From the IMG/VR virus record IMGVR_UViG_3300025087_000641, positions 32,001 to 96,000 of that record: DNA of 64,000 nt; one strand, 5' to 3'. A program made the translations under genes and the position numbers. This DNA comes from a virus. Positions within the stretch are counted from its first letter, which is position 1. Each line of letters begins with the position of its first letter. The notes beneath the pieces were generated by a model. That model was not told the DNA's origin and made no database searches. It was given only the letters and a program-made list of their open reading frames with translations. Positions 1,026 to 32,166 of the stretch are shown one piece after another.

Positions 1026-1464
1026 TTTGACAGGCGAACAGATTGACGCCATGCCTGCTGGACACGAGATGGATGTACTTGTGGCAGAGCATGTGATGGA
1101 GTGGGAACGTCTTGATTCTTGGATGGGAAGTCCTCTTGCTAAAGGATGGGATGGTTTTTGGGATGGTGAGTGGGTGAAATGGATTATAATGCCAGAATCG
1201 GACGATGAGAACAGGGCTAAATTGTGGTCTCCAAGTACAGATATTGTTGCGGCATGGCAGGTGGTGGAGAAACTTGTCGAAAACTGTGATGGAAGAGACT
1301 TCTTTATAGAATGTTGGGGTGATGGTGAATGGTTTGTTGCGTTCCATCCGATTGGATATAGTTCAAGAAAACCACAGGGTGCGTGCGATGGCAAGAAAAC
1401 CCAGAATCCATCCGCACCCTTGGCGATTTGTCGCGCCGCATTGAATTGGGCAATTGATGACTGA
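1018..1464 (+). CDS. Phage ABA-sandwich domain protein
   Basis: Motifs DVLVAEHVMEW, PSTDIVAAWQVVEKL and APLAICRAAL are typical of this family. Confidence 0.8.
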   Translation: MTDLTGEQIDAMPAGHEMDVLVAEHVMEWERLDSWMGSPLAKGWDGFWDGEWVKWIIMPESDDENRAKLWSPSTDIVAAWQVVEKLVENCDGRDFFIECWGDGEWFVAFHPIGYSSRKPQGACDGKKTQNPSAPLAICRAALNWAIDD

Positions 1465-2470
1465 TAATCTAGTATCCATGCAAAACATCTTCTGGCGTGG
1501 TGCTTCTGTCGCCATCACTGGCATTACTGGAAGCCTCGGAACTGCGCTATCCAAAGAACTATTGAAACCAGAGTACAATATTTCTCGTCTTGTTGGGATA
1601 AGTCGAAAGTGGCAAGACCAAGACAGACTCCGCAAGGAATTGGGGGATGACGATAAACTCAGATTATTCATTGGCGACATTCGAGACATTGACAGACTTA
1701 GACTTGCACTAGACGGGGTTGAATATCTTGTCCATGCAGCAGCTATAAAATCAGTTCCCGCCTGCTGGTATAATCCCACAGAGGCCGTAAGCATAAACGG
1801 ACAGGGAACTATCAATGTTCTGCAAGCGTCTAGGGATGCTGGGGTCAAACGGGTAATTGTCATCTCTAGTGATAAGGCAGTAGCACCCGCCAGTGGCAAC
1901 CTCTACGGCGCAACAAAAGCAGTATGCGAGTCTGTGGCGGTATCGTATAACAACTATAGCGCCAGTCGTCAGACTCGGTATGCGGTTTGTCGCTATGGAA
2001 ATTGTGTAGCGTCAAGTGGATCAGTTATCCCATTGTTCCTAAGCCAAAAAGAAAGCGGGAAATTGACCATTACTCATCCAAAGATGACAAGATTCTGGAT
2101 TACGCTAGATGAGGCAACACATTTCATCCTGAAAAGTATGGAGTCAATGCTCGGTGGCGAAATCTTTGTACCCCACCTCCCATCCTCTCGGATAACTACG
2201 TTGGCATCTATGATAGCGCCTGAGGCAGAGATTGAGACAATCGGTATTCGTCCCGGCGAGAAGTTGCACGAGGTTATGCTAACACCAGATGAAGCACCAC
2301 GGACTAAAGATTTGGGATGGGCATACAGAGTCGAGCCACAAGAAAGGACATGGGGAGGCTTGCCGTATATTGGGGGTAGTCCAGTTCCGGCAGATTGGAT
2401 TTACAGCAGTGCAAGTGCTACGCGACTTGGCGAGGATGAGTTGCGCGGGATGTTGTCCGAATTTGTATAA
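1454..2470 (+). CDS. pseB: UDP-GlcNAc 4,6-dehydratase (inverting)
   Basis: ITGITGSLG, IGDIRD, VHAAAIKSVP, SSDKAV, NLYGATK, RYGNCVASSGSVIP, MTRFWIT, GIRPGEKLHE. Confidence 0.92.
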   Translation: MMTDNLVSMQNIFWRGASVAITGITGSLGTALSKELLKPEYNISRLVGISRKWQDQDRLRKELGDDDKLRLFIGDIRDIDRLRLALDGVEYLVHAAAIKSVPACWYNPTEAVSINGQGTINVLQASRDAGVKRVIVISSDKAVAPASGNLYGATKAVCESVAVSYNNYSASRQTRYAVCRYGNCVASSGSVIPLFLSQKESGKLTITHPKMTRFWITLDEATHFILKSMESMLGGEIFVPHLPSSRITTLASMIAPEAEIETIGIRPGEKLHEVMLTPDEAPRTKDLGWAYRVEPQERTWGGLPYIGGSPVPADWIYSSASATRLGEDELRGMLSEFV

Positions 2471-2494
2471 TCCAATGTAAAAGAGAGGATACAA

Positions 2495-3301
2495 ATGGGA
2501 TATACAACGGGTGTTCAATGGACAAATCGGACTCACAATTTCTGGTATGGGTGCAAAAAGGTATCTGCGGGATGTAAGTTCTGTTATGCAGAACGCGATA
2601 TGGAGCGGTATGGACGCAATTTCAATACTGTGACTAGGGCAAAGGGATTTTATACGCCACTAAATTGGAAAGAGCCAGCACTTGTATTTGTGAATTCATG
2701 GTCAGACTTCTTTATTGAGGAAGCCGACGAATGGCGCAGTGATGCTTGGGATGTTATCTGGAAGACCCCGCATTTGACTTATCAGATACTTACCAAGCGT
2801 CCAGAGAATATCAAAGATAGACTCCCCGCCAATTGGGGATGGGGATGGGATAATGTTTGGTTGGGGGTAAGTGCAGAGAATCAGGCAATGGCAGACAAGC
2901 GCATACCAATTCTATTGTCCATTCCGTCAAGTATTCGTTTTGTAAGTGCAGAGCCGTTACTCGGAAAGATTGATCTTGGACTGTGGTGTATGGATTGCGA
3001 TGATTATATGCGTATTCATCGCGCGGAGGGCGAGCATCTAACCGATGCGGGAGATGGATTACACTGGATAATTGCCGGTGGAGAGAGTGGTCATACTCCG
3101 CGCCCATCTGATATTGATTGGTTTCGTTCTATTCGCGACCAATGCCTCTCCGCAAATATTCCGTTCTTCTTCAAACAGGTGGGCGGAAGCAAGAAAGTCA
3201 ATGGCGCATGGGGTGGGGACTTGCTTGACGGCAAAATATGGCACGAGTTTCCACAGACAAGCAAGCAGACAGAATCACAGCCAGAATTGATTAGGAGTTG
3301 A
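2495..3301 (+). CDS. Phage Gp37/Gp68 (DUF5131) family protein
   Basis: GCKKVSAGCKFCYAE, FVNSWSDFF, YQILTKRPE, NVWLGVSAENQ, WIIAGGESG, PFFFKQ. Confidence 0.92.
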   Translation: MGYTTGVQWTNRTHNFWYGCKKVSAGCKFCYAERDMERYGRNFNTVTRAKGFYTPLNWKEPALVFVNSWSDFFIEEADEWRSDAWDVIWKTPHLTYQILTKRPENIKDRLPANWGWGWDNVWLGVSAENQAMADKRIPILLSIPSSIRFVSAEPLLGKIDLGLWCMDCDDYMRIHRAEGEHLTDAGDGLHWIIAGGESGHTPRPSDIDWFRSIRDQCLSANIPFFFKQVGGSKKVNGAWGGDLLDGKIWHEFPQTSKQTESQPELIRS

Positions 3302-3302
3302 C

Positions 3303-3563
3303 ATGGCCTACTTCTTGGCATTACCCAATGGTGACGAATACACGATAGCATCGGGATCGTTTTCTGTGCGCTCAAATGCGGAGAAGTATGCAAAGAGAAT
3401 GGGATGGACTAAATATTTCATCGCCACTTCCGAACAAAAGGCAATGATAGAGAGCGGTCAACTGGTCTCATTCGGAACTGTTATTCCCATTGAGAATGTT
3501 ACCGCGCTAGTTGAGCCGGAAAAAGAATCCAAGAACAAACGCAAGCGCCATGTCTCCCGCTGA
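3303..3563 (+). CDS. Hypothetical protein
   Basis: AGGAG upstream of ATG; operon context. Confidence 0.6.
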   Translation: MAYFLALPNGDEYTIASGSFSVRSNAEKYAKRMGWTKYFIATSEQKAMIESGQLVSFGTVIPIENVTALVEPEKESKNKRKRHVSR

Positions 3564-4050
3564 ATTCTTTCTCAACCTCTCCGCCAATATAGCAGGGGAG
3601 ATAGCCTTTGCCATACTTGCAGTTGTGGCGGGACTCGTTGCGTTTCGCTATCGCAAGGCCGCCTCTGTATATCGTGCGCTAGTATCTCAAATGTGGGTAG
3701 GAAGAAAGACAACCTCACCAGACGGTAGAAGTACAGCACACGAGGCCAATGGTGAAATATATATTACCGAGAAGTCTGGTAGAATAACAAATCTGACTCA
3801 TCATCCAGCACTAGATATTCGCCCAATGTTTTCTCCCGATGGACGATGGTTGGCATTCCAAAGCAATAGGGATGGTGGGGATTGGAATGTCTATGTGGTG
3901 GATATTGCATCCCAGAAAACGGTTCAGATTACAAAAATCAAAGGAACAGAGAGAGCAATTGGATGGGACATGACGGGGCAGTTGTATGTAGACCTCGGGG
4001 GCAGCCTGCTTGTCGTCAAGTCTATTGAGTTGGAGAACAAATTGAAATGA
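3550..4050 (+). CDS. Membrane-anchored protein with TolB/PD40-like repeats
   Basis: N-terminal hydrophobic helix, then SPDGRS and PMFSPDGRWLAFQSNRDGGDWNVYVVD. Start taken at ATG 3550. Confidence 0.75.
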   Translation: MSPAEFFLNLSANIAGEIAFAILAVVAGLVAFRYRKAASVYRALVSQMWVGRKTTSPDGRSTAHEANGEIYITEKSGRITNLTHHPALDIRPMFSPDGRWLAFQSNRDGGDWNVYVVDIASQKTVQITKIKGTERAIGWDMTGQLYVDLGGSLLVVKSIELENKLK

Positions 4051-4511
4051 GCAATATTGTATATGAATGGATTATGGACAGAGACGGAAATGTTGTGGTT
4101 GGGGAACACATCTTGTCACAAGAGGAAGTAGTCGCCATATTCAGTGGTGGAAGTAGTACTAACACGACCTCAAATGGTGGAATGTTGACATGGACTATTC
4201 CCAACGCAAACAATAGTAATCAGTCAACTCCCACAGTCAAGGTTGCCCTCTATCGGCGTAGCACCCATGATGGGAAGGGGAACTACAAGCAATTCACGCC
4301 TACGCAAGAACAACTCTGGAAAGACCTTGCAGTAGTTGCGACGATGACGAGTGCACTGGCATGGAAATCTGTAGATGAGATTTTCAGAGACGCCACGGAC
4401 TATCGGAACAGAATGATAGGTGGCAAAAAGGAATACATCTCTAGGGACTTTGTTGAACAGTCATTAGAAATACTTTGCAATAATGGATTGATCGAGAAAA
4501 ACGATGCCTAA
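4047..4511 (+). CDS. Hypothetical protein
   Basis: ATGA overlap with the upstream gene. Confidence 0.6.
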   Translation: MSNIVYEWIMDRDGNVVVGEHILSQEEVVAIFSGGSSTNTTSNGGMLTWTIPNANNSNQSTPTVKVALYRRSTHDGKGNYKQFTPTQEQLWKDLAVVATMTSALAWKSVDEIFRDATDYRNRMIGGKKEYISRDFVEQSLEILCNNGLIEKNDA

Positions 4512-5214
4512 TTGTGTGGCGGTTATTCCCGTTCGGGGAAACAGCAAGGGTATTCCAAGAAAGAATCTAATTGACTTGGGCGGCAAGCCTCTATTCATGT
4601 GGACAGTTGGGGCGGCAATAGAGTCTGGCGTATTTGACAAGATTGTAGTGAGCACAGAAGATGATGAAATCATAAGTTATTGTGACAACGGGAAAGTGGA
4701 TGTAATTTTTCGCCCGCGCTATCTTTCACAAGATCATGTTCAATTGAGTGAGGTTGTGTTACATGCCTATCGGGTTATGGAGCAAGAGTGGGGATGGAAT
4801 CCAACAACGCTATGCTTGTTACAGGCGACCTCGCCACTAAGGACGGCGGGCCATATCATCAATGCCATGCGACAATATAGGGGGCGAGGGACTCTATTCT
4901 CAGCATACATTGACAAACGGTATCACTGGGCGGTGGAGGATAGAGTCGAACCAATACAGCATAATCCTGCTAGACGACTTGGCAGGCAATGGGAGCCAAG
5001 TCAAATTTATACCGAGAACGGGGCGATTTATTTCTTTCCAGCAAAACGATTTAGCCTAGAATGCACAATTAGACTAGAACCATTTGATGTCTATATTATG
5101 GACGAGGAAGATGGATTTGAAATTGATACCCCTTGGCAACTTGATATAGCAAGGCTTAGACTAGAGAAATATGGTCTGCATTTCCCGGAACTTGCGCCAC
5201 AATTAGGCCCTTGA
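4504..5214 (+). CDS. neuA: CMP-nonulosonate synthetase (NeuA/PseF family cytidylyltransferase)
   Basis: IPVRGNSKGIPRKNL, VVSTEDDEI, LLQATSPLR, ENGAIY, EIDTPWQL. Confidence 0.92.
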   Translation: MPNCVAVIPVRGNSKGIPRKNLIDLGGKPLFMWTVGAAIESGVFDKIVVSTEDDEIISYCDNGKVDVIFRPRYLSQDHVQLSEVVLHAYRVMEQEWGWNPTTLCLLQATSPLRTAGHIINAMRQYRGRGTLFSAYIDKRYHWAVEDRVEPIQHNPARRLGRQWEPSQIYTENGAIYFFPAKRFSLECTIRLEPFDVYIMDEEDGFEIDTPWQLDIARLRLEKYGLHFPELAPQLGP

Positions 5215-5239
5215 CTTTTACATAAAGATATATTATATT
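5211..5239 (+). promoter_or_regulatory. Sigma70-type promoter for tnpB, probably leaderless
   Basis: TTGACT-N17-TATATT; ATG begins 7 nt after the -10 box; no Shine-Dalgarno. Confidence 0.7.
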
Positions 5240-5246
5240 GTAAGGC

Positions 5247-6431
5247 ATGATTATCAATAAATCATTTAAGTTCAGAGTTTATCCAACGAGAGAACAGAAA
5301 AAAGAACTCGTCAGGCAATTTGACGCATCACGTTTTGTATATAATTATTTTCTTCGCCAAAGAATTGATTTCTATGTTGCCCACAGGGGGGAGAAAAAAC
5401 AATCCCTGAATTATAATGATACTTCTGCATTGCTTACTCAACTTAAAAAACAGCCTGAATATAATTGGCTTAGGGATACAAATGCCCAATCTCTTCAACA
5501 GTCCTTACGCAATCTTGATATTGCCTATAATAATTTTTTCAATAAACGGACTGAATTTCCGAGATTCAAAAGTAAAAGGGCAAAGCAATCCTTCCATGTC
5601 CCACAATCTTTTTCGGTAAATGTTGAAAATGAACATTTAATTATCCCCAAAATAACACCACTAAAAATTGTTCTGCACCGCCATATTGAGGGGAAAATGA
5701 AGGGCGTTACCATTTCCCGCTCTCCGTCTGGCAATTATTTTGCCTCTATTCTATGTGAAGTTGAAATTAATCCGAGTCCAAAAAGTCTAGGGCACACTAT
5801 TGGATTAGACTTGGGATTGAAACATTTTGCCATTTCATCGGATGGGGCAAAAATAGATTCTCCAAGATATTTTAGGGTATCCGAGCGTAGGCTTTCACGT
5901 TTTCAGCGTAACCTTTCAAGAAAGAAAAACGGAAGTCGGGGACAAGAAAAGGCAAGATTGAAAGTAGCACGTCAGCACGAAAAGATTGTAAATCAACGCA
6001 TTGACTTCCTTCATAAATTAAGTCGTCGCTTAGTAGACGAGAGCCAAGCTATCTATGTTGAGGACTTAAATGTGAAGGGCATGATAAAGAATCGCGCCCT
6101 TGCAAAATCTATCGGCGATTCTGGGTGGGGAGAATTTGTGCGCTGGTTAGAATACAAGGGCAGATGGAATGGTTGTTATATTGGGAAAATTGATAGATTC
6201 TTTCCATCAAGCAAGCGGTGTCACAAATGCGGCTACATCTACCAGGATTTGCGACTCTCGGAACGTGAATGGACTTGCCCAGAATGCGGGAACACAGTAG
6301 ACCGTGATGAGAACGCTGCCCAGAATATTCTTATTTTTGGGGAAGAACGTAGGGCTGGGATGGCCCGAACGCATACGCGAGGGAAGATTCGTCGCCGAAT
6401 CGCTGATCCTCGAAGTCGCATGATTCTATAA
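5247..6431 (+). CDS. tnpB: RNA-guided endonuclease TnpB (IS200/IS605 family)
   Basis: FKFRVYPT N-terminus; RuvC-I GLDLGLK, RuvC-II VEDLNV, Zn ribbon CHKCG/CPECG, RuvC-III DRDENAA. Catalytic D/E/D residues are intact. Confidence 0.95.
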   Translation: MIINKSFKFRVYPTREQKKELVRQFDASRFVYNYFLRQRIDFYVAHRGEKKQSLNYNDTSALLTQLKKQPEYNWLRDTNAQSLQQSLRNLDIAYNNFFNKRTEFPRFKSKRAKQSFHVPQSFSVNVENEHLIIPKITPLKIVLHRHIEGKMKGVTISRSPSGNYFASILCEVEINPSPKSLGHTIGLDLGLKHFAISSDGAKIDSPRYFRVSERRLSRFQRNLSRKKNGSRGQEKARLKVARQHEKIVNQRIDFLHKLSRRLVDESQAIYVEDLNVKGMIKNRALAKSIGDSGWGEFVRWLEYKGRWNGCYIGKIDRFFPSSKRCHKCGYIYQDLRLSEREWTCPECGNTVDRDENAAQNILIFGEERRAGMARTHTRGKIRRRIADPRSRMIL

Positions 6432-6464
6432 TGCGACAATTCACATTATGCCAGAAGAGGATGG
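6346..6464 (+). ncRNA. Predicted TnpB omegaRNA (scaffold plus guide at about 6445-6464); 5' end approximate
   Basis: GGGCTGGGATGGCCC stem; terminal hairpin GTCGCAT-N9-ATGCGAC then AATTCAC (TTCAC at 6440-6444), resembling an IS200/605 right end. Confidence 0.75.
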
Positions 6465-6561
6465 GCGGGAGATAGACGCTCAATGGGAGCTTGATGTGGC
6501 GAGGTTGAGATTTGAGAAGTACGGGTTACATCATCCAGACACAACGCCCATTTTGGAATAA
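6445..6561 (+). pseudogene. Orphan second copy of the neuA 3' end (38 codons plus stop)
   Basis: Reads IMPEEDGREIDAQWELDVARLRFEKYGLHHPDTTPILE*, 25/38 identical to the NeuA C-terminus. Its stop lies 2 nt before the next ATG. Confidence 0.9.
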
Positions 6562-6563
6562 CA

Positions 6564-7046
6564 ATGCTAACACTTTCGCCAATAACGCTAAAAGAAACGG
6601 AGAGGATTTGGCAACTCAGAAACGATGTTGCCACGAGGCGCGAGTTTGGGATACCTGTAATCTCATATGCTCAGTGCCTAGATTGGGTGGCGACTGTCAC
6701 CGACAGAAAGACTCCCGAATATGTGTTCCTCGTCAGAGATGCCAAGATGGGGAATATCGGTCTTATCATTCTGGAGAAACACGGCGCAGAAATTGAGATT
6801 CATGTTACAATAGACCCTGCCCATCGAGTACGCAGGGGATATGGCAAACAGGCGATAAAACTAGCAACCGACTGGGCATTTATGAATGGCGCAGACAGGG
6901 TAGTTGCCAACATCCGAGAAGAAAATTACAAAGGACTCTTTGCATTTGAGTCCTCTGGGTACAAAGAAGTCAGAAACTATCTTGGGCCGAGGAATATATC
7001 ATACTTTGAATACGAGATAAGAAATGACCAGAAGAAGAAATACTAA
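6564..7046 (+). CDS. GNAT N-acyltransferase (PseH-like)
   Basis: IWQLRND, DPAHRVRRGYGK, IREENYKGLFAFESSGY; pseudaminic acid pathway context. Confidence 0.8.
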   Translation: MLTLSPITLKETERIWQLRNDVATRREFGIPVISYAQCLDWVATVTDRKTPEYVFLVRDAKMGNIGLIILEKHGAEIEIHVTIDPAHRVRRGYGKQAIKLATDWAFMNGADRVVANIREENYKGLFAFESSGYKEVRNYLGPRNISYFEYEIRNDQKKKY

Positions 7047-7851
7047 TATAGACAGACATTGGGATGAAATTACATGGTTATATCTAAATAATTTTGAATC
7101 AACTGTATCATTGGGAGAAAAATTTAGCGTACATGCATCAACTATAGAGAGGCGATTGAAACAGAGTGGTATTCCTGTAAGGCCAGGCGGGAATCTTACT
7201 GAAAATCACACAGCCTTTGATGAAATTAATCCAGATATGTTGTATTGGCTTGGCTATTTGGCTGGAGATGGATGTGTTACACACAATGCAAATGGAATAT
7301 TATCAATCATTTCAATAACAAGCATTGATATTGAACATATTGATAAATTTCTACATTTCCTGTCATCGCATTCCAAAATAACACGGCGCGAAAGCGAAAT
7401 AAATGGCAAGAAATATGTTGTTCATGGGGCAAAAATTACATCTGAAAGAATCGCAAATAGACTTGTTTTTCTTGGGGTAACTCCAAGAAAATCAAGAACC
7501 ATTTCAATATGCCAACAATCCATAGTTTCGACGGTTGATTTTCTGCGTGGTATAATAGATTCTGACGGTTCATTAACTATAACGGCTGATGGATTTACCC
7601 CGACGATAAGCATTTACACCAGTAGCGGGAAATTCTCGGAACAACTCTCTCTTGGTTTCAATGAAATGTTTGGAGAGACATGTGGGATATATTATGACAA
7701 AAGGGGGTCTGGAGCATACCAAGTCGCACTACATGGAAAGAGAATATTGCCCATCTTGCATAGATTATATTCGGGAGACGACATATCATTAAACAGAAAA
7801 AGGGATATTGCATTAGATGTTTTGGAAAGGTTTGGATATGCCCAAATTTGA
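7024..7851 (+). CDS. Free-standing LAGLIDADG homing endonuclease
   Basis: Two motifs, YWLGYLAGDGC and FLRGIIDSDGS; HTH-like N-terminus; AT-rich. Confidence 0.9.
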   Translation: MTRRRNTNIDRHWDEITWLYLNNFESTVSLGEKFSVHASTIERRLKQSGIPVRPGGNLTENHTAFDEINPDMLYWLGYLAGDGCVTHNANGILSIISITSIDIEHIDKFLHFLSSHSKITRRESEINGKKYVVHGAKITSERIANRLVFLGVTPRKSRTISICQQSIVSTVDFLRGIIDSDGSLTITADGFTPTISIYTSSGKFSEQLSLGFNEMFGETCGIYYDKRGSGAYQVALHGKRILPILHRLYSGDDISLNRKRDIALDVLERFGYAQI

Positions 7852-8731
7852 TACTAAACAAGATTCTCGCATTAAATCTGCAAATTATAGGCATGTAGAA
7901 TTAATAGCAGAAATAGGAAGCAACGCAAACGGCGATTTTGAACGTGCGCGGCAATTGGTAGAAACGGCGTGTTCCTGTGGTGCTGATATTATCAAGGTGC
8001 AACTCTTCGCCGCCGATACCCTGTGGCGCAAAGACCACCCTCGCCATGCCGAGACCCTGAAAGTTGAGACTAAGCCGGAATGGATTAAGCCACTGAAAGA
8101 AATCATTGAGAAGCACGGCAAAGAGTTTCTGTGTACTCCGTTCTCTCCATTTGCCATTGATGTTCTTGAAGAGGTGGGTATCAAGAGATACAAGATAGCA
8201 TCTGGAGATGTCACCTACCGCCCATTACTACAGGCGGTAGCATTGACTGGCAAGCCGGTTTTACTCAGCGTTGGGTTTTCAACATTTGCTGAAATCCACA
8301 AGGCGATTGAATGGCTTAGGCCGTCCGGGAGTCGGGAGGATATTACGCTCCTGTGGTGTGTGGGTGACTATCCAACGACTCCTGCTAGGGCTAACTACCC
8401 TGCTGTTCTTGACCTCATCCAAGAGTTTGTGATGCAATACAATTGCCAGATTGGATTGTCTAGTCACCTGAAAGAGTGGTGGTTAGACCTAGTCCCAATG
8501 GCTTACAAAATCAGCGTCATTGAAAAGCACTTTGACCTGTTTGATAGTGCGGGCATTGAACATGGTCATTCACTATCGCCACATGACTTTACGCTATTCT
8601 CACAAGCAGTACGGGATGCGGAAAAGTCGCTGACTCGATATGATTTCCCGTCACCAGATGATGACGAGACGCGGACTTTATGCAGGCGTGACCCGCGAGA
8701 TTGGCTTAGGCCAGAAAGACGCGATAAATGA
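7838..8731 (+). CDS. neuB: Nonulosonate synthase (NeuB/PseI family), no C-terminal SAF domain
   Basis: IAEIGSNANGD, ADIIKVQ, CTPFS, YKIASGD, IEKHF. Start taken at ATG 7838. Confidence 0.88.
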   Translation: MPKFDTKQDSRIKSANYRHVELIAEIGSNANGDFERARQLVETACSCGADIIKVQLFAADTLWRKDHPRHAETLKVETKPEWIKPLKEIIEKHGKEFLCTPFSPFAIDVLEEVGIKRYKIASGDVTYRPLLQAVALTGKPVLLSVGFSTFAEIHKAIEWLRPSGSREDITLLWCVGDYPTTPARANYPAVLDLIQEFVMQYNCQIGLSSHLKEWWLDLVPMAYKISVIEKHFDLFDSAGIEHGHSLSPHDFTLFSQAVRDAEKSLTRYDFPSPDDDETRTLCRRDPRDWLRPERRDK

Positions 8732-31852: not shown

Positions 31853-32166
31853 TCAGAGGCGTTGGTCTTTTCGTAGAGGTCGGTGATGCACTCCACAAGC
31901 CACGCCACAAGTTTTGGTGACGCCGGGAAAGTCTCGTAAGTCACGGGATTCGGAAGTCCAGAAATATCCCACAGTTTTACAAGCGGAATAGCAGCAGGCA
32001 GAAGTGCGGCATAGAACTCGTAAAGAGAGTCTGTTGACTCTTTGAGTTTCGTTGCCACCGATAGTGCTTTCTCCCATGCTACCAAAGCGGGAAACGAGAG
32101 ATAGTCATTGTGGAAGGTTATCTTTCCCCTCCACCTATCAACATCACATGGATATTCAAGAGGCAT
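31831..32166 (-). CDS. Tail assembly chaperone (gpG-like)
   Basis: Upstream of TMP; ends with a slippery site. Confidence 0.8.
   Translation of the reverse strand: MPLEYPCDVDRWRGKITFHNDYLSFPALVAWEKALSVATKLKESTDSLYEFYAALLPAAIPLVKLWDISGLPNPVTYETFPASPKLVAWLVECITDLYEKTNASDPNSQGG
31846..31852 (-). other. Programmed -1 ribosomal frameshift site C CCA AAC
   Basis: In-phase X XXY YYZ heptamer a few codons before the stop; the -1 frame is open. Confidence 0.8.

Follow-up and report, generated by a model that had tools for sequence, protein, structure and literature searches.

A tnpB gene between native and replacement ends of phage neuA: a candidate RNA-guided homing cassette

Background

TnpB is the ancestor of Cas12, and its shown natural role is the keeping or spreading of its own transposon. 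The locus described here lies in a 64,000-nucleotide stretch of phage DNA (hereafter the window; positions 32,001 to 96,000 of IMG/VR record IMGVR_UViG_3300025087_000641) and raises the question of how a tnpB gene can sit within another gene, neuA, leave that gene whole, and spread with no transposase of its own. A sequence-only reading of the window had proposed that tnpB belongs to a homing cassette that cuts the cassette-free neuA alleles of co-infecting relatives and carries a cleavage-resistant replacement for the gene end it displaces. In the analysis reported here, homing of a transposase-less cassette by RNA-guided cleavage of empty neuA alleles and recombinational repair is given a slightly better than even chance of being the correct reading. 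All coordinates are window positions unless a locus name (L0xx) precedes them.

Results and discussion

Structure of the cassette

The neuA open reading frame (ORF; 4504-5214, plus strand, as are all features of the cassette) encodes a 236-residue protein of the family CTP_transf_3. Codons 1-197 (4504-5094) form the native, cytidylyltransferase part (Pfam CTP_transf_3, E = 1.4e-19) and share 93-100% nucleotide identity over 4796-5095 with the cassette-free relative L080. Inside the gene lies a 1350-bp insert (5095-6444) composed, from left to right, of a replacement neuA 3' end, a 32-nt spacer, an intact tnpB, and a right end made up of a hairpin and the motif TTCAC. The replacement end, hereafter T' (5095-5214; 39 codons and a stop), is foreign to the gene, and neuA is complete without splicing because its ORF closes in T'. 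Directly 5' of the insert the sequence reads TCTAT (5090-5094), a pentamer that resembles a transposon-associated motif (TAM) and has one mismatch to TTTAT. The hexamer ATTATG is present at both junctions, where it belongs to the homologous tails, and the boundary of the insert is ambiguous by 6 nt.

Only 32 nt separate the neuA stop codon from the tnpB ATG. A promoter-like site for tnpB, TTGACT-17-TATATT (5211-5239), is the best match in the region at 10 of 12 positions, as a consensus match only, and the neuA stop falls within its -35 hexamer; this agrees with the earlier claim that nothing other than a promoter stands between the two genes. The tnpB gene itself (5247-6431) is intact, encodes 394 residues with domains PF12323, PF01385 and PF07282, and is the only tnpB in the genome. 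The right end and presumed omegaRNA scaffold were placed at 6305-6444, an extent taken from ISDra2 (PMC8612924), and by that analogy this interval should encode the scaffold. It finishes in a terminal hairpin (6415-6437) followed by AATTCAC to 6444, of which the last five bases (6440-6444) are the end motif TTCAC. Immediately beyond it lies the orphaned native neuA end, hereafter T (6445-6561), consisting of 38 codons and a stop, in frame and without start context, and its stop codon (6559-6561) is followed 2 nt further on by the ATG of a GNAT acetyltransferase gene. In ISDra2 the last ~16 nt of the omegaRNA are copied from the DNA flanking the right end (PMC8612924). Under this family rule a guide of 16-20 nt would be encoded at 6445-6464. 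The orphan starts at the first base outside the element, where an ISDra2-type guide would be copied.

T' and T are identical at 25 of 38 residues and 68 of 117 nt, and 15 codons differ synonymously only. When the sequence was read again, the two tails translated as the sequence-only reading had given them, with the same identity and many synonymous differences, and the orphan was found to begin right after the hairpin and TTCAC and to stop 2 nt before the GNAT gene, as had been described. The anatomy and boundaries of the cassette are solid, as are the assignment of its native and foreign parts and the polymorphism set out below.

The record was assembled from metagenome reads, and the samples contain several neuA alleles side by side; both facts would suit a chimera in which an unrelated tnpB contig had been joined to two different neuA alleles. 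Such an artefact is nevertheless extremely improbable: of the words sampled from 4700-6900, 95% or more are present in each of 16 runs, separate Logan contigs from another sample bridge 5071-5335 and 6432-6735 with 0 differences, and the exact TnpB and NeuA proteins occur on 34 and 28 contigs, respectively. In four samples that contain the stretch in part, the contigs were only 100-450 bp in length and contained no joint across 5094/6445.

Native and foreign gene ends

Protein relatives were sought among 5.8 billion sequences that had been grouped at 90% identity, and cassette-free neuA DNA was obtained from a metagenome scan, in which L080 was the nearest relative. At 5096 the identity to L080 falls from 97% to ~60%, and it stays near ~60% from there on; the orphan T matches the tail of L080 at 85-89% nucleotide identity. 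The close NeuA relatives P0006-P0008, all of 235 residues, carry orphan-type tails, that of P0008 being 2 of 38 residues off the orphan, and orphan-type tails stand at the same place in L075-L080. Because cassette-free relatives have an orphan-type tail at this place, the orphan is the native neuA end, which agrees with the proposal that it stops as a native gene end would. L075-L078 and L080 are empty at the same codon, a presence/absence polymorphism at one precise site. At one of the two residues that separate it from P0008, the orphan has arginine, where most relatives have tryptophan or phenylalanine and only P0023 is otherwise different (cysteine); this change from tryptophan fits a recently released constraint.

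T' falls outside all sampled tails, with 62-67% nucleotide identity to native tails versus 71-89% among the native tails themselves, and its third-position identity is 31-43% to native tails (0.31 to T). When residues 190-236 were scored alone, no cluster other than P0005 was found to have the T' tail, and the best match after it was ~75% identical. Nonsynonymous divergence (dN) between T' and T is 0.28 and synonymous divergence (dS) is saturated, whereas dS between the adjacent neuA body and L080 is 0.40; duplication in situ followed by divergence was rejected on this ground. Because dS is saturated and T' lies outside all sampled tails, T' is best read as an imported gene end and not a recent local duplicate, one that appears to have evolved under protein constraint in an unsampled lineage.

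TnpB, the right end and the missing transposon parts

The window TnpB matched the ISDra2 TnpB structures 8bf8 and 8h1j over its full length (E = 5e-90), its Pfam domains being HTH_OrfB_IS605, OrfB_IS605 and the Cas12f1-like TNB. It retains the RuvC-type motifs GLDLG, VEDLN and DRDENAA and a CxxC...CxxC zinc ribbon. No relative in IMG/VR or GTDB exceeds 55% identity, and there is therefore no second copy of the element in another context in those collections.

Among 58 related loci with a TTCA[CT] motif, ~40 distinct right ends (of elements with TnpB 34-55% identical) finish in a hairpin and (T)AGTTCAC, after which the flanks diverge. Because these related elements end likewise, with flanks diverging beyond, the right-end boundary after TTCAC is real. 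The terminal hairpin shows compensatory changes at 6 of 7 pairs; the fold of the whole right-end region was no better than that of shuffled sequences (z = -0.8).

Neither a transposase nor a left end was found, as had been noted earlier. A search for the Y1 HUH transposase (PF01797) gave no match in the whole 105-kb, ~85% complete record, and was positive in 6 of 14 control genomes. Canonical relatives have a left end of the form GTAAAACCC-hairpin-GGGATGTAAG at 100-145 nt before the tnpB ATG; in the window, no significant DNA fold was found in 5080-5260 (z = 0.29). A derivation of the spacer from the element was also considered and set aside, as its alignment with relatives was too poor for proof and TTGACTTTT...TATATTATA, common to the spacers of the window and of locus L014, was matched by eye only. 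With neither TnpA nor a left end, the element cannot transpose. An Rfam search of 4000-8000 detected no omegaRNA, intron or other family, with no intron family at E values up to 1. The IStron reading was therefore rejected, as no ribozyme was found in 4000-8000 and none is needed.

An element that cannot transpose may be a stranded relic, and this is the main rival to homing: a canonical IS200/IS605 insertion 3' of TTTAT in neuA, the left end of which was later replaced by the neuA end of another phage, leaving a tnpB that is moved by ordinary recombination only and a TnpB that is idle or acts elsewhere. The lack of both transposition parts speaks for this account. A useless 1.2-kb phage gene would, however, be expected to decay, and here the tnpB frame, the catalytic motifs and the right-end hairpin are all intact, with TnpB identical on its 34 contigs. 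Two features of the gene ends also sit poorly with a relic, namely that the orphan holds exactly the guide position and that T' is most unlike T, at a third-position identity of 0.31. The relic is considered unlikely on balance, although it is the most serious of the alternatives.

The target site and the predicted guide

In 6 canonical relatives, TTTAT lies 8-11 nt before the left-end motif. According to 10.1101/2023.03.14.532601, the ISGst2 TnpB2 uses TTTAT as its TAM, and the motif at the right end of ISGst departs from this sequence at positions 3 and 5, from which we infer that this motif is TTCAC. Because of the ISGst2 TAM and of TTTAT before the left ends of canonical relatives, TTTAT is the likely TAM of the window TnpB by analogy. 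Roughly 2-3% of positions should by chance be preceded by a pentamer with at most one mismatch to TTTAT, and TCTAT, directly before the insert, is one base from TTTAT; the junction therefore resembles a canonical TAM-directed insertion site.

The empty neuA sites compared were L075:6574-6612, L076:623-661, L077:3268-3306, L078:1007-1045 and L080:435-473. The sequence-only reading had suggested that uninterrupted alleles with an orphan-type end should exist, and that a synonymous change to GTT TAT would create a TTTAT TAM. Such alleles were found in L075-L080, and the synonymous form is real: the place reads TTTAT in L075 and L078, the same pentamer that precedes the left ends of canonical relatives. 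This part of the expectation held in two loci only, as L076, L077 and L080 read TCTAT there. Against L080 the predicted guide has no mismatch in positions 1-17, behind the flank TCTAT. L075 combines TTTAT with a guide mismatch at position 3, and L078 combines TTTAT with mismatches at positions 1 and 15.

Read against the resident neuA, the guide has 5 mismatches in 20, at positions 7, 8, 9, 12 and 15, the same set that had been noted earlier. Four of these (7, 8, 9 and 12) fall within the first 12 positions, and in ISDra2 TnpB double mismatches within positions 1-12 abolish cleavage (PMC10097598). The resident T' site is thus predicted, on the behaviour of a relative, to escape its own TnpB.

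In run X20, over 6460-6503, a P0021-like relative is represented by a small contig with ...ACGAGGAA ahead of GATGG; the Asp-Glu-Glu codons used by T' at guide positions 7-15 therefore occur in natural neuA alleles. The loose end seen at 6460 in this run was considered as a possible recombinant and rejected, as it is the sequence of this P0021-like relative.

One replacement end on several NeuA backbones

The P0005 cluster comprises eight NeuA variants, of 236 residues or partial, all of which carry T' with 39 of 39 residues identical. The tail was seen on no NeuA variants other than those of this length, and the comparison supports its travelling together with the cassette. At least three NeuA backbones bear this identical T', namely the P0001-type, P0005 (P0006-like) and P0247. 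The body of P0005 is identical to P0006 at 50 of 50 residues over residues 81-130, versus 45 of 50 to the window, and that of P0247 is identical to P0009 at 46 of 48 residues over residues 32-80, versus 37 of 48 to the window. P0009 is of the L075 type, with TTTAT at the site. About ten codons ahead of the junction, P0247 turns to the window-like sequence TIRLEP. An identical T' on at least three backbones indicates lateral spread by recombination, and lateral spread of the T' cassette is considered likely from these comparisons. Homing with co-conversion would be expected to leave behind a single foreign tail on three backbones and, next to it, a brief tract of converted sequence.

The earlier proposal that the cassette is copied in by recombination, rebuilding neuA with neither splicing nor a transposase, was upheld as to the rebuilding, since the neuA ORF is complete and neither TnpA nor an intron was found. 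The recurrence of T' on several backbones is in keeping with the copying. Cleavage as the driver of this spread is a well-motivated extension that we infer from the arrangement of the parts.

Proposed mechanism and its alternatives

In principle, a complex of TnpB and omegaRNA would recognise the TAM and T in the cassette-free neuA of co-infecting related phages and cut there. The break would be repaired from the cassette-bearing genome, with neuA upstream and T-GNAT downstream serving as homology arms (the GNAT gene, 6564-7046, plus strand, Pfam Acetyltransf_3, is 85% identical in nucleotide sequence to L080 996-1465), and the cassette would be copied in. In the recipient, neuA would stay whole, ending in T', while the displaced T would sit where the guide is transcribed. 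Mismatches to the guide (positions 7, 8, 9 and 12) would protect the resident TAM and T' from cleavage, perhaps with a contribution from the TAM variant. Such a cassette may have originated in two steps: a canonical TnpA-mediated insertion 3' of TTTAT in an ancestral neuA, followed by an illegitimate recombination that swapped the left end for a complete gene end, selection then keeping the restoration of neuA.

Several points weigh against this mechanism. None of the five empty alleles pairs TTTAT with a perfect 12-nt seed, each having either TCTAT or a mismatch in guide positions 1-12; the absence of perfect targets might reflect drive-resistance alleles or plain drift, and n = 5 decides nothing. 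The closest empty allele, L080, reads TCTAT, as does the resident site, and may be a poor target, and the two TTTAT relatives bear a seed mismatch, at position 3 or 1. The TAM of the window TnpB is assigned by analogy, and guide expression and TnpB cleavage are predictions from the sequence. The evidence from several backbones is at the protein level and comes from short European Nucleotide Archive metagenome contigs, which may be assembly chimeras, and mosaics of this kind would also arise, with no cleavage, if co-infecting phages simply underwent ordinary homologous recombination. The last point serves the stranded relic as well, as phage mosaicism alone can place one tail on several backbones, and so does the non-consensus TCTAT at the resident site and in L080.

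The same anatomy would be left by a weapon of competition, in which TnpB and its omegaRNA cut the neuA of rivals mainly to destroy or exclude their genomes, with T' as self-immunity and the copying-in as a by-product. In the 300 nt that precede the site, relatives are 5-27% divergent, and repair may be inefficient in the more distant ones, where cutting would kill. There is precedent among phage homing endonucleases (review PMC13565253), and PMC11620839 describes interference competition by an intron endonuclease of phage PhiPA3. On the other hand, T' stands on three backbones beside a brief co-converted tract, which indicates that copying-in does happen, and the two roles are not exclusive. 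As the main function of the cassette, competition is thought improbable, more so than the relic.

The same layout at other tnpB loci

The sequence-only reading had recommended a survey of phage tnpB genes for upstream-gene C-termini repeated just after the right end. In 121 related tnpB loci, the protein encoded upstream was compared locally with the sequence after the right end. The score was 141 in the window and 68 and 67 in the next two loci, with a background of at most ~62, and those next two proved to be real duplications too. The layout of the window was seen at two other phage tnpB loci, L012 and L014.

At L012, a 70-residue upstream gene (L012 3746-3958) precedes tnpB (L012 3998-5200), with the repeat at L012 5228-5270. 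The upstream gene ends in ...DIKTFVEETLE, and the same 11 codons follow TTCAC with 4 synonymous differences. The L012 repeat also contains, in another frame, the ATG and first codons of a downstream epimerase-like gene, and the L012 tnpB is without an ATG. At L014, a 51-residue zinc-ribbon-like gene (L014 3247-3402) precedes tnpB (L014 3491-4654), with the repeat at L014 4694-4745. The gene end ...CANDKSLTLKLYK is repeated as CVNDKSLTLKLYK directly after TTCAT, and the repeat reads CVNDKSLTLKLYKTVK-stop, differing from the gene end at 8 of 39 nt, nearly all of the differences being synonymous. The left end has been lost at both loci. Cassette-free relatives of L012 and L014 were sought, and only matches too distant for use were obtained.

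Recurrence of the layout at independent loci, with the left end lost each time, points to selection for the arrangement and speaks against a stranded relic. A wider proposition, which we regard as evenly poised between true and false, is that RNA-guided 'home-and-rescue' elements exist in phages as a natural class. In these, TnpB and its omegaRNA, without TnpA and a left end and with a cleavage-resistant spare gene end, would spread by no other means than the cutting of empty alleles under direction of the guide, followed by repair through recombination.

Relation to known systems

The cassette shares with IS200/IS605 elements such as ISDra2 and the Geobacillus ISGst2 an ISDra2-like TnpB, a right-end hairpin with TTCAC, a guide position directly 3' of it and a TTTAT-like left flank (PMC8612924; PMC10097598; and, for ISGst2, 10.1101/2023.03.14.532601), and the logic of homing by cutting the allele without the element would be the same. 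It differs from them in that no TnpA was found in the record, there is no left-end hairpin and there is no excision to restore, its left part being coding sequence, namely a gene end by which the interrupted host gene is made whole, and in that its targets would be other phage genomes and not a sister chromosome. The TnpB gene drive in multicopy plasmids (PMC11870625) and 'transposon non-restorative homing' (review PMC13565253) likewise involve TnpA-independent, RNA-guided spread into element-free copies of the same replicon; the plasmid drive was shown for complete IS elements on plasmids, with no rescue sequence (PMC11870625). A 2026 review treats phage-to-phage homing of TnpB elements as purely theoretical (PMC13565253).

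Nearly the same layout is seen in the mobile ORF (mORF) gene hybrids of mitochondria in fungi (Allomyces macrogynus atp6; Glomus atp6, atp9, cox2 and nad3; PMC3630166), which combine a native core, a C-terminus that is foreign and diverged, the gene of an endonuclease and, displaced, the native C-terminus. In the window, similarly, a nuclease gene is found inside neuA between a foreign replacement end and a displaced native end. Identity to relatives is 91-98% for the native tails of the mORF hybrids versus 85-89% in the window, and 64-81% versus 60-67% for the inserted tails (PMC3630166). The fungal nucleases are protein-guided LAGLIDADG or GIY-YIG enzymes in a eukaryotic organelle, whereas the window has an RNA-guided TnpB in a phage, with the displaced tail doubling as the putative guide template.

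In the intronless homing of T-even phages (SegF, SegB; PMC13565253), a nuclease gene between conserved phage genes also spreads in co-infection, with co-conversion of its flanks. The Seg and Mob genes sit between genes without interrupting one, recognise their targets by protein and have no duplicated gene end. HomeR CRISPR drives (PMC7968924) combine an RNA-guided nuclease, inserted in a gene that is needed, with a recoded gene end that resists cleavage; these are synthetic, use Cas9 and act in a diploid insect, whereas the window contains a natural viral element. IStrons, which combine a group I intron with an IS607 or IS605 TnpB (PMC10690162), are also TnpB elements that spare the interrupted gene. 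There the gene is restored by RNA splicing; in the window neuA is restored at the DNA level by the spare end, and the Rfam search gave no intron family.

A literature search found no publication on a TnpB element carrying a replacement gene end. The components are known separately, in TnpB homing, the plasmid drive, intronless homing, mORF hybrids and HomeR, and their combination was not found in the literature. With its transposon machinery gone, the cassette resembles a homing endonuclease gene that is RNA-guided and nothing else, the spare gene end being its payment for the insertion, and it parallels in nature the cleave-and-rescue or home-and-rescue drives that have been engineered. If the homing reading is true, TnpA-independent homing of TnpB from phage to phage is real, which would help to explain orphan tnpB genes in phages, and the cassette would be the RNA-guided counterpart of the fungal mORFs and a natural precedent for HomeR drives. 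The window would then offer a clean and apparently active example, with the empty allele, target and immune copy all identified, and a compact natural system for viral drive and resistance dynamics with a defined target (the TAM and 16 nt of neuA), an immune allele and empty alleles.

Genomic context

The window is part of a 105-kb IMG/VR record that is ~85% complete. The record encodes a major head protein, a portal, a large terminase and a tape measure protein, and therefore represents a tailed phage. The runs containing the stretch are groundwater and soil metagenomes. Phage records in GenBank contained no region similar to the window locus, and scans of IMG/VR with the GNAT gene, a NeuA alignment and the exact right-end 30-mer yielded no match beyond the window's own record.

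A set of genes for nonulosonic acid biosynthesis (pseudaminic or legionaminic-like) occupies 1454-8731 around tnpB. It includes a PseB-like dehydratase gene (1454-2470) and neuB (7817-8731), both assigned by Pfam search, and a DUF5131 gene lies at 2495-3301. Between the GNAT gene and neuB, a free-standing LAGLIDADG endonuclease gene (7024-7851; Pfam LAGLIDADG_3, G+C ~35%) is present that is missing from L080, and beside it the final few GNAT codons and the initial ~20 neuB codons differ from L080. This gene is a second, protein-guided insertion of the homing type, 460 nt from the TnpB cassette. Between neuA and the GNAT gene, L080 itself has two small cysteine-rich ORFs (86 and 69 residues; L080 570-1000), both of which are absent from the window. 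The neuA-GNAT junction is an insertion hot spot, and the LAGLIDADG gene in the window and the two small ORFs in L080 are in this respect also in favour of the stranded relic.

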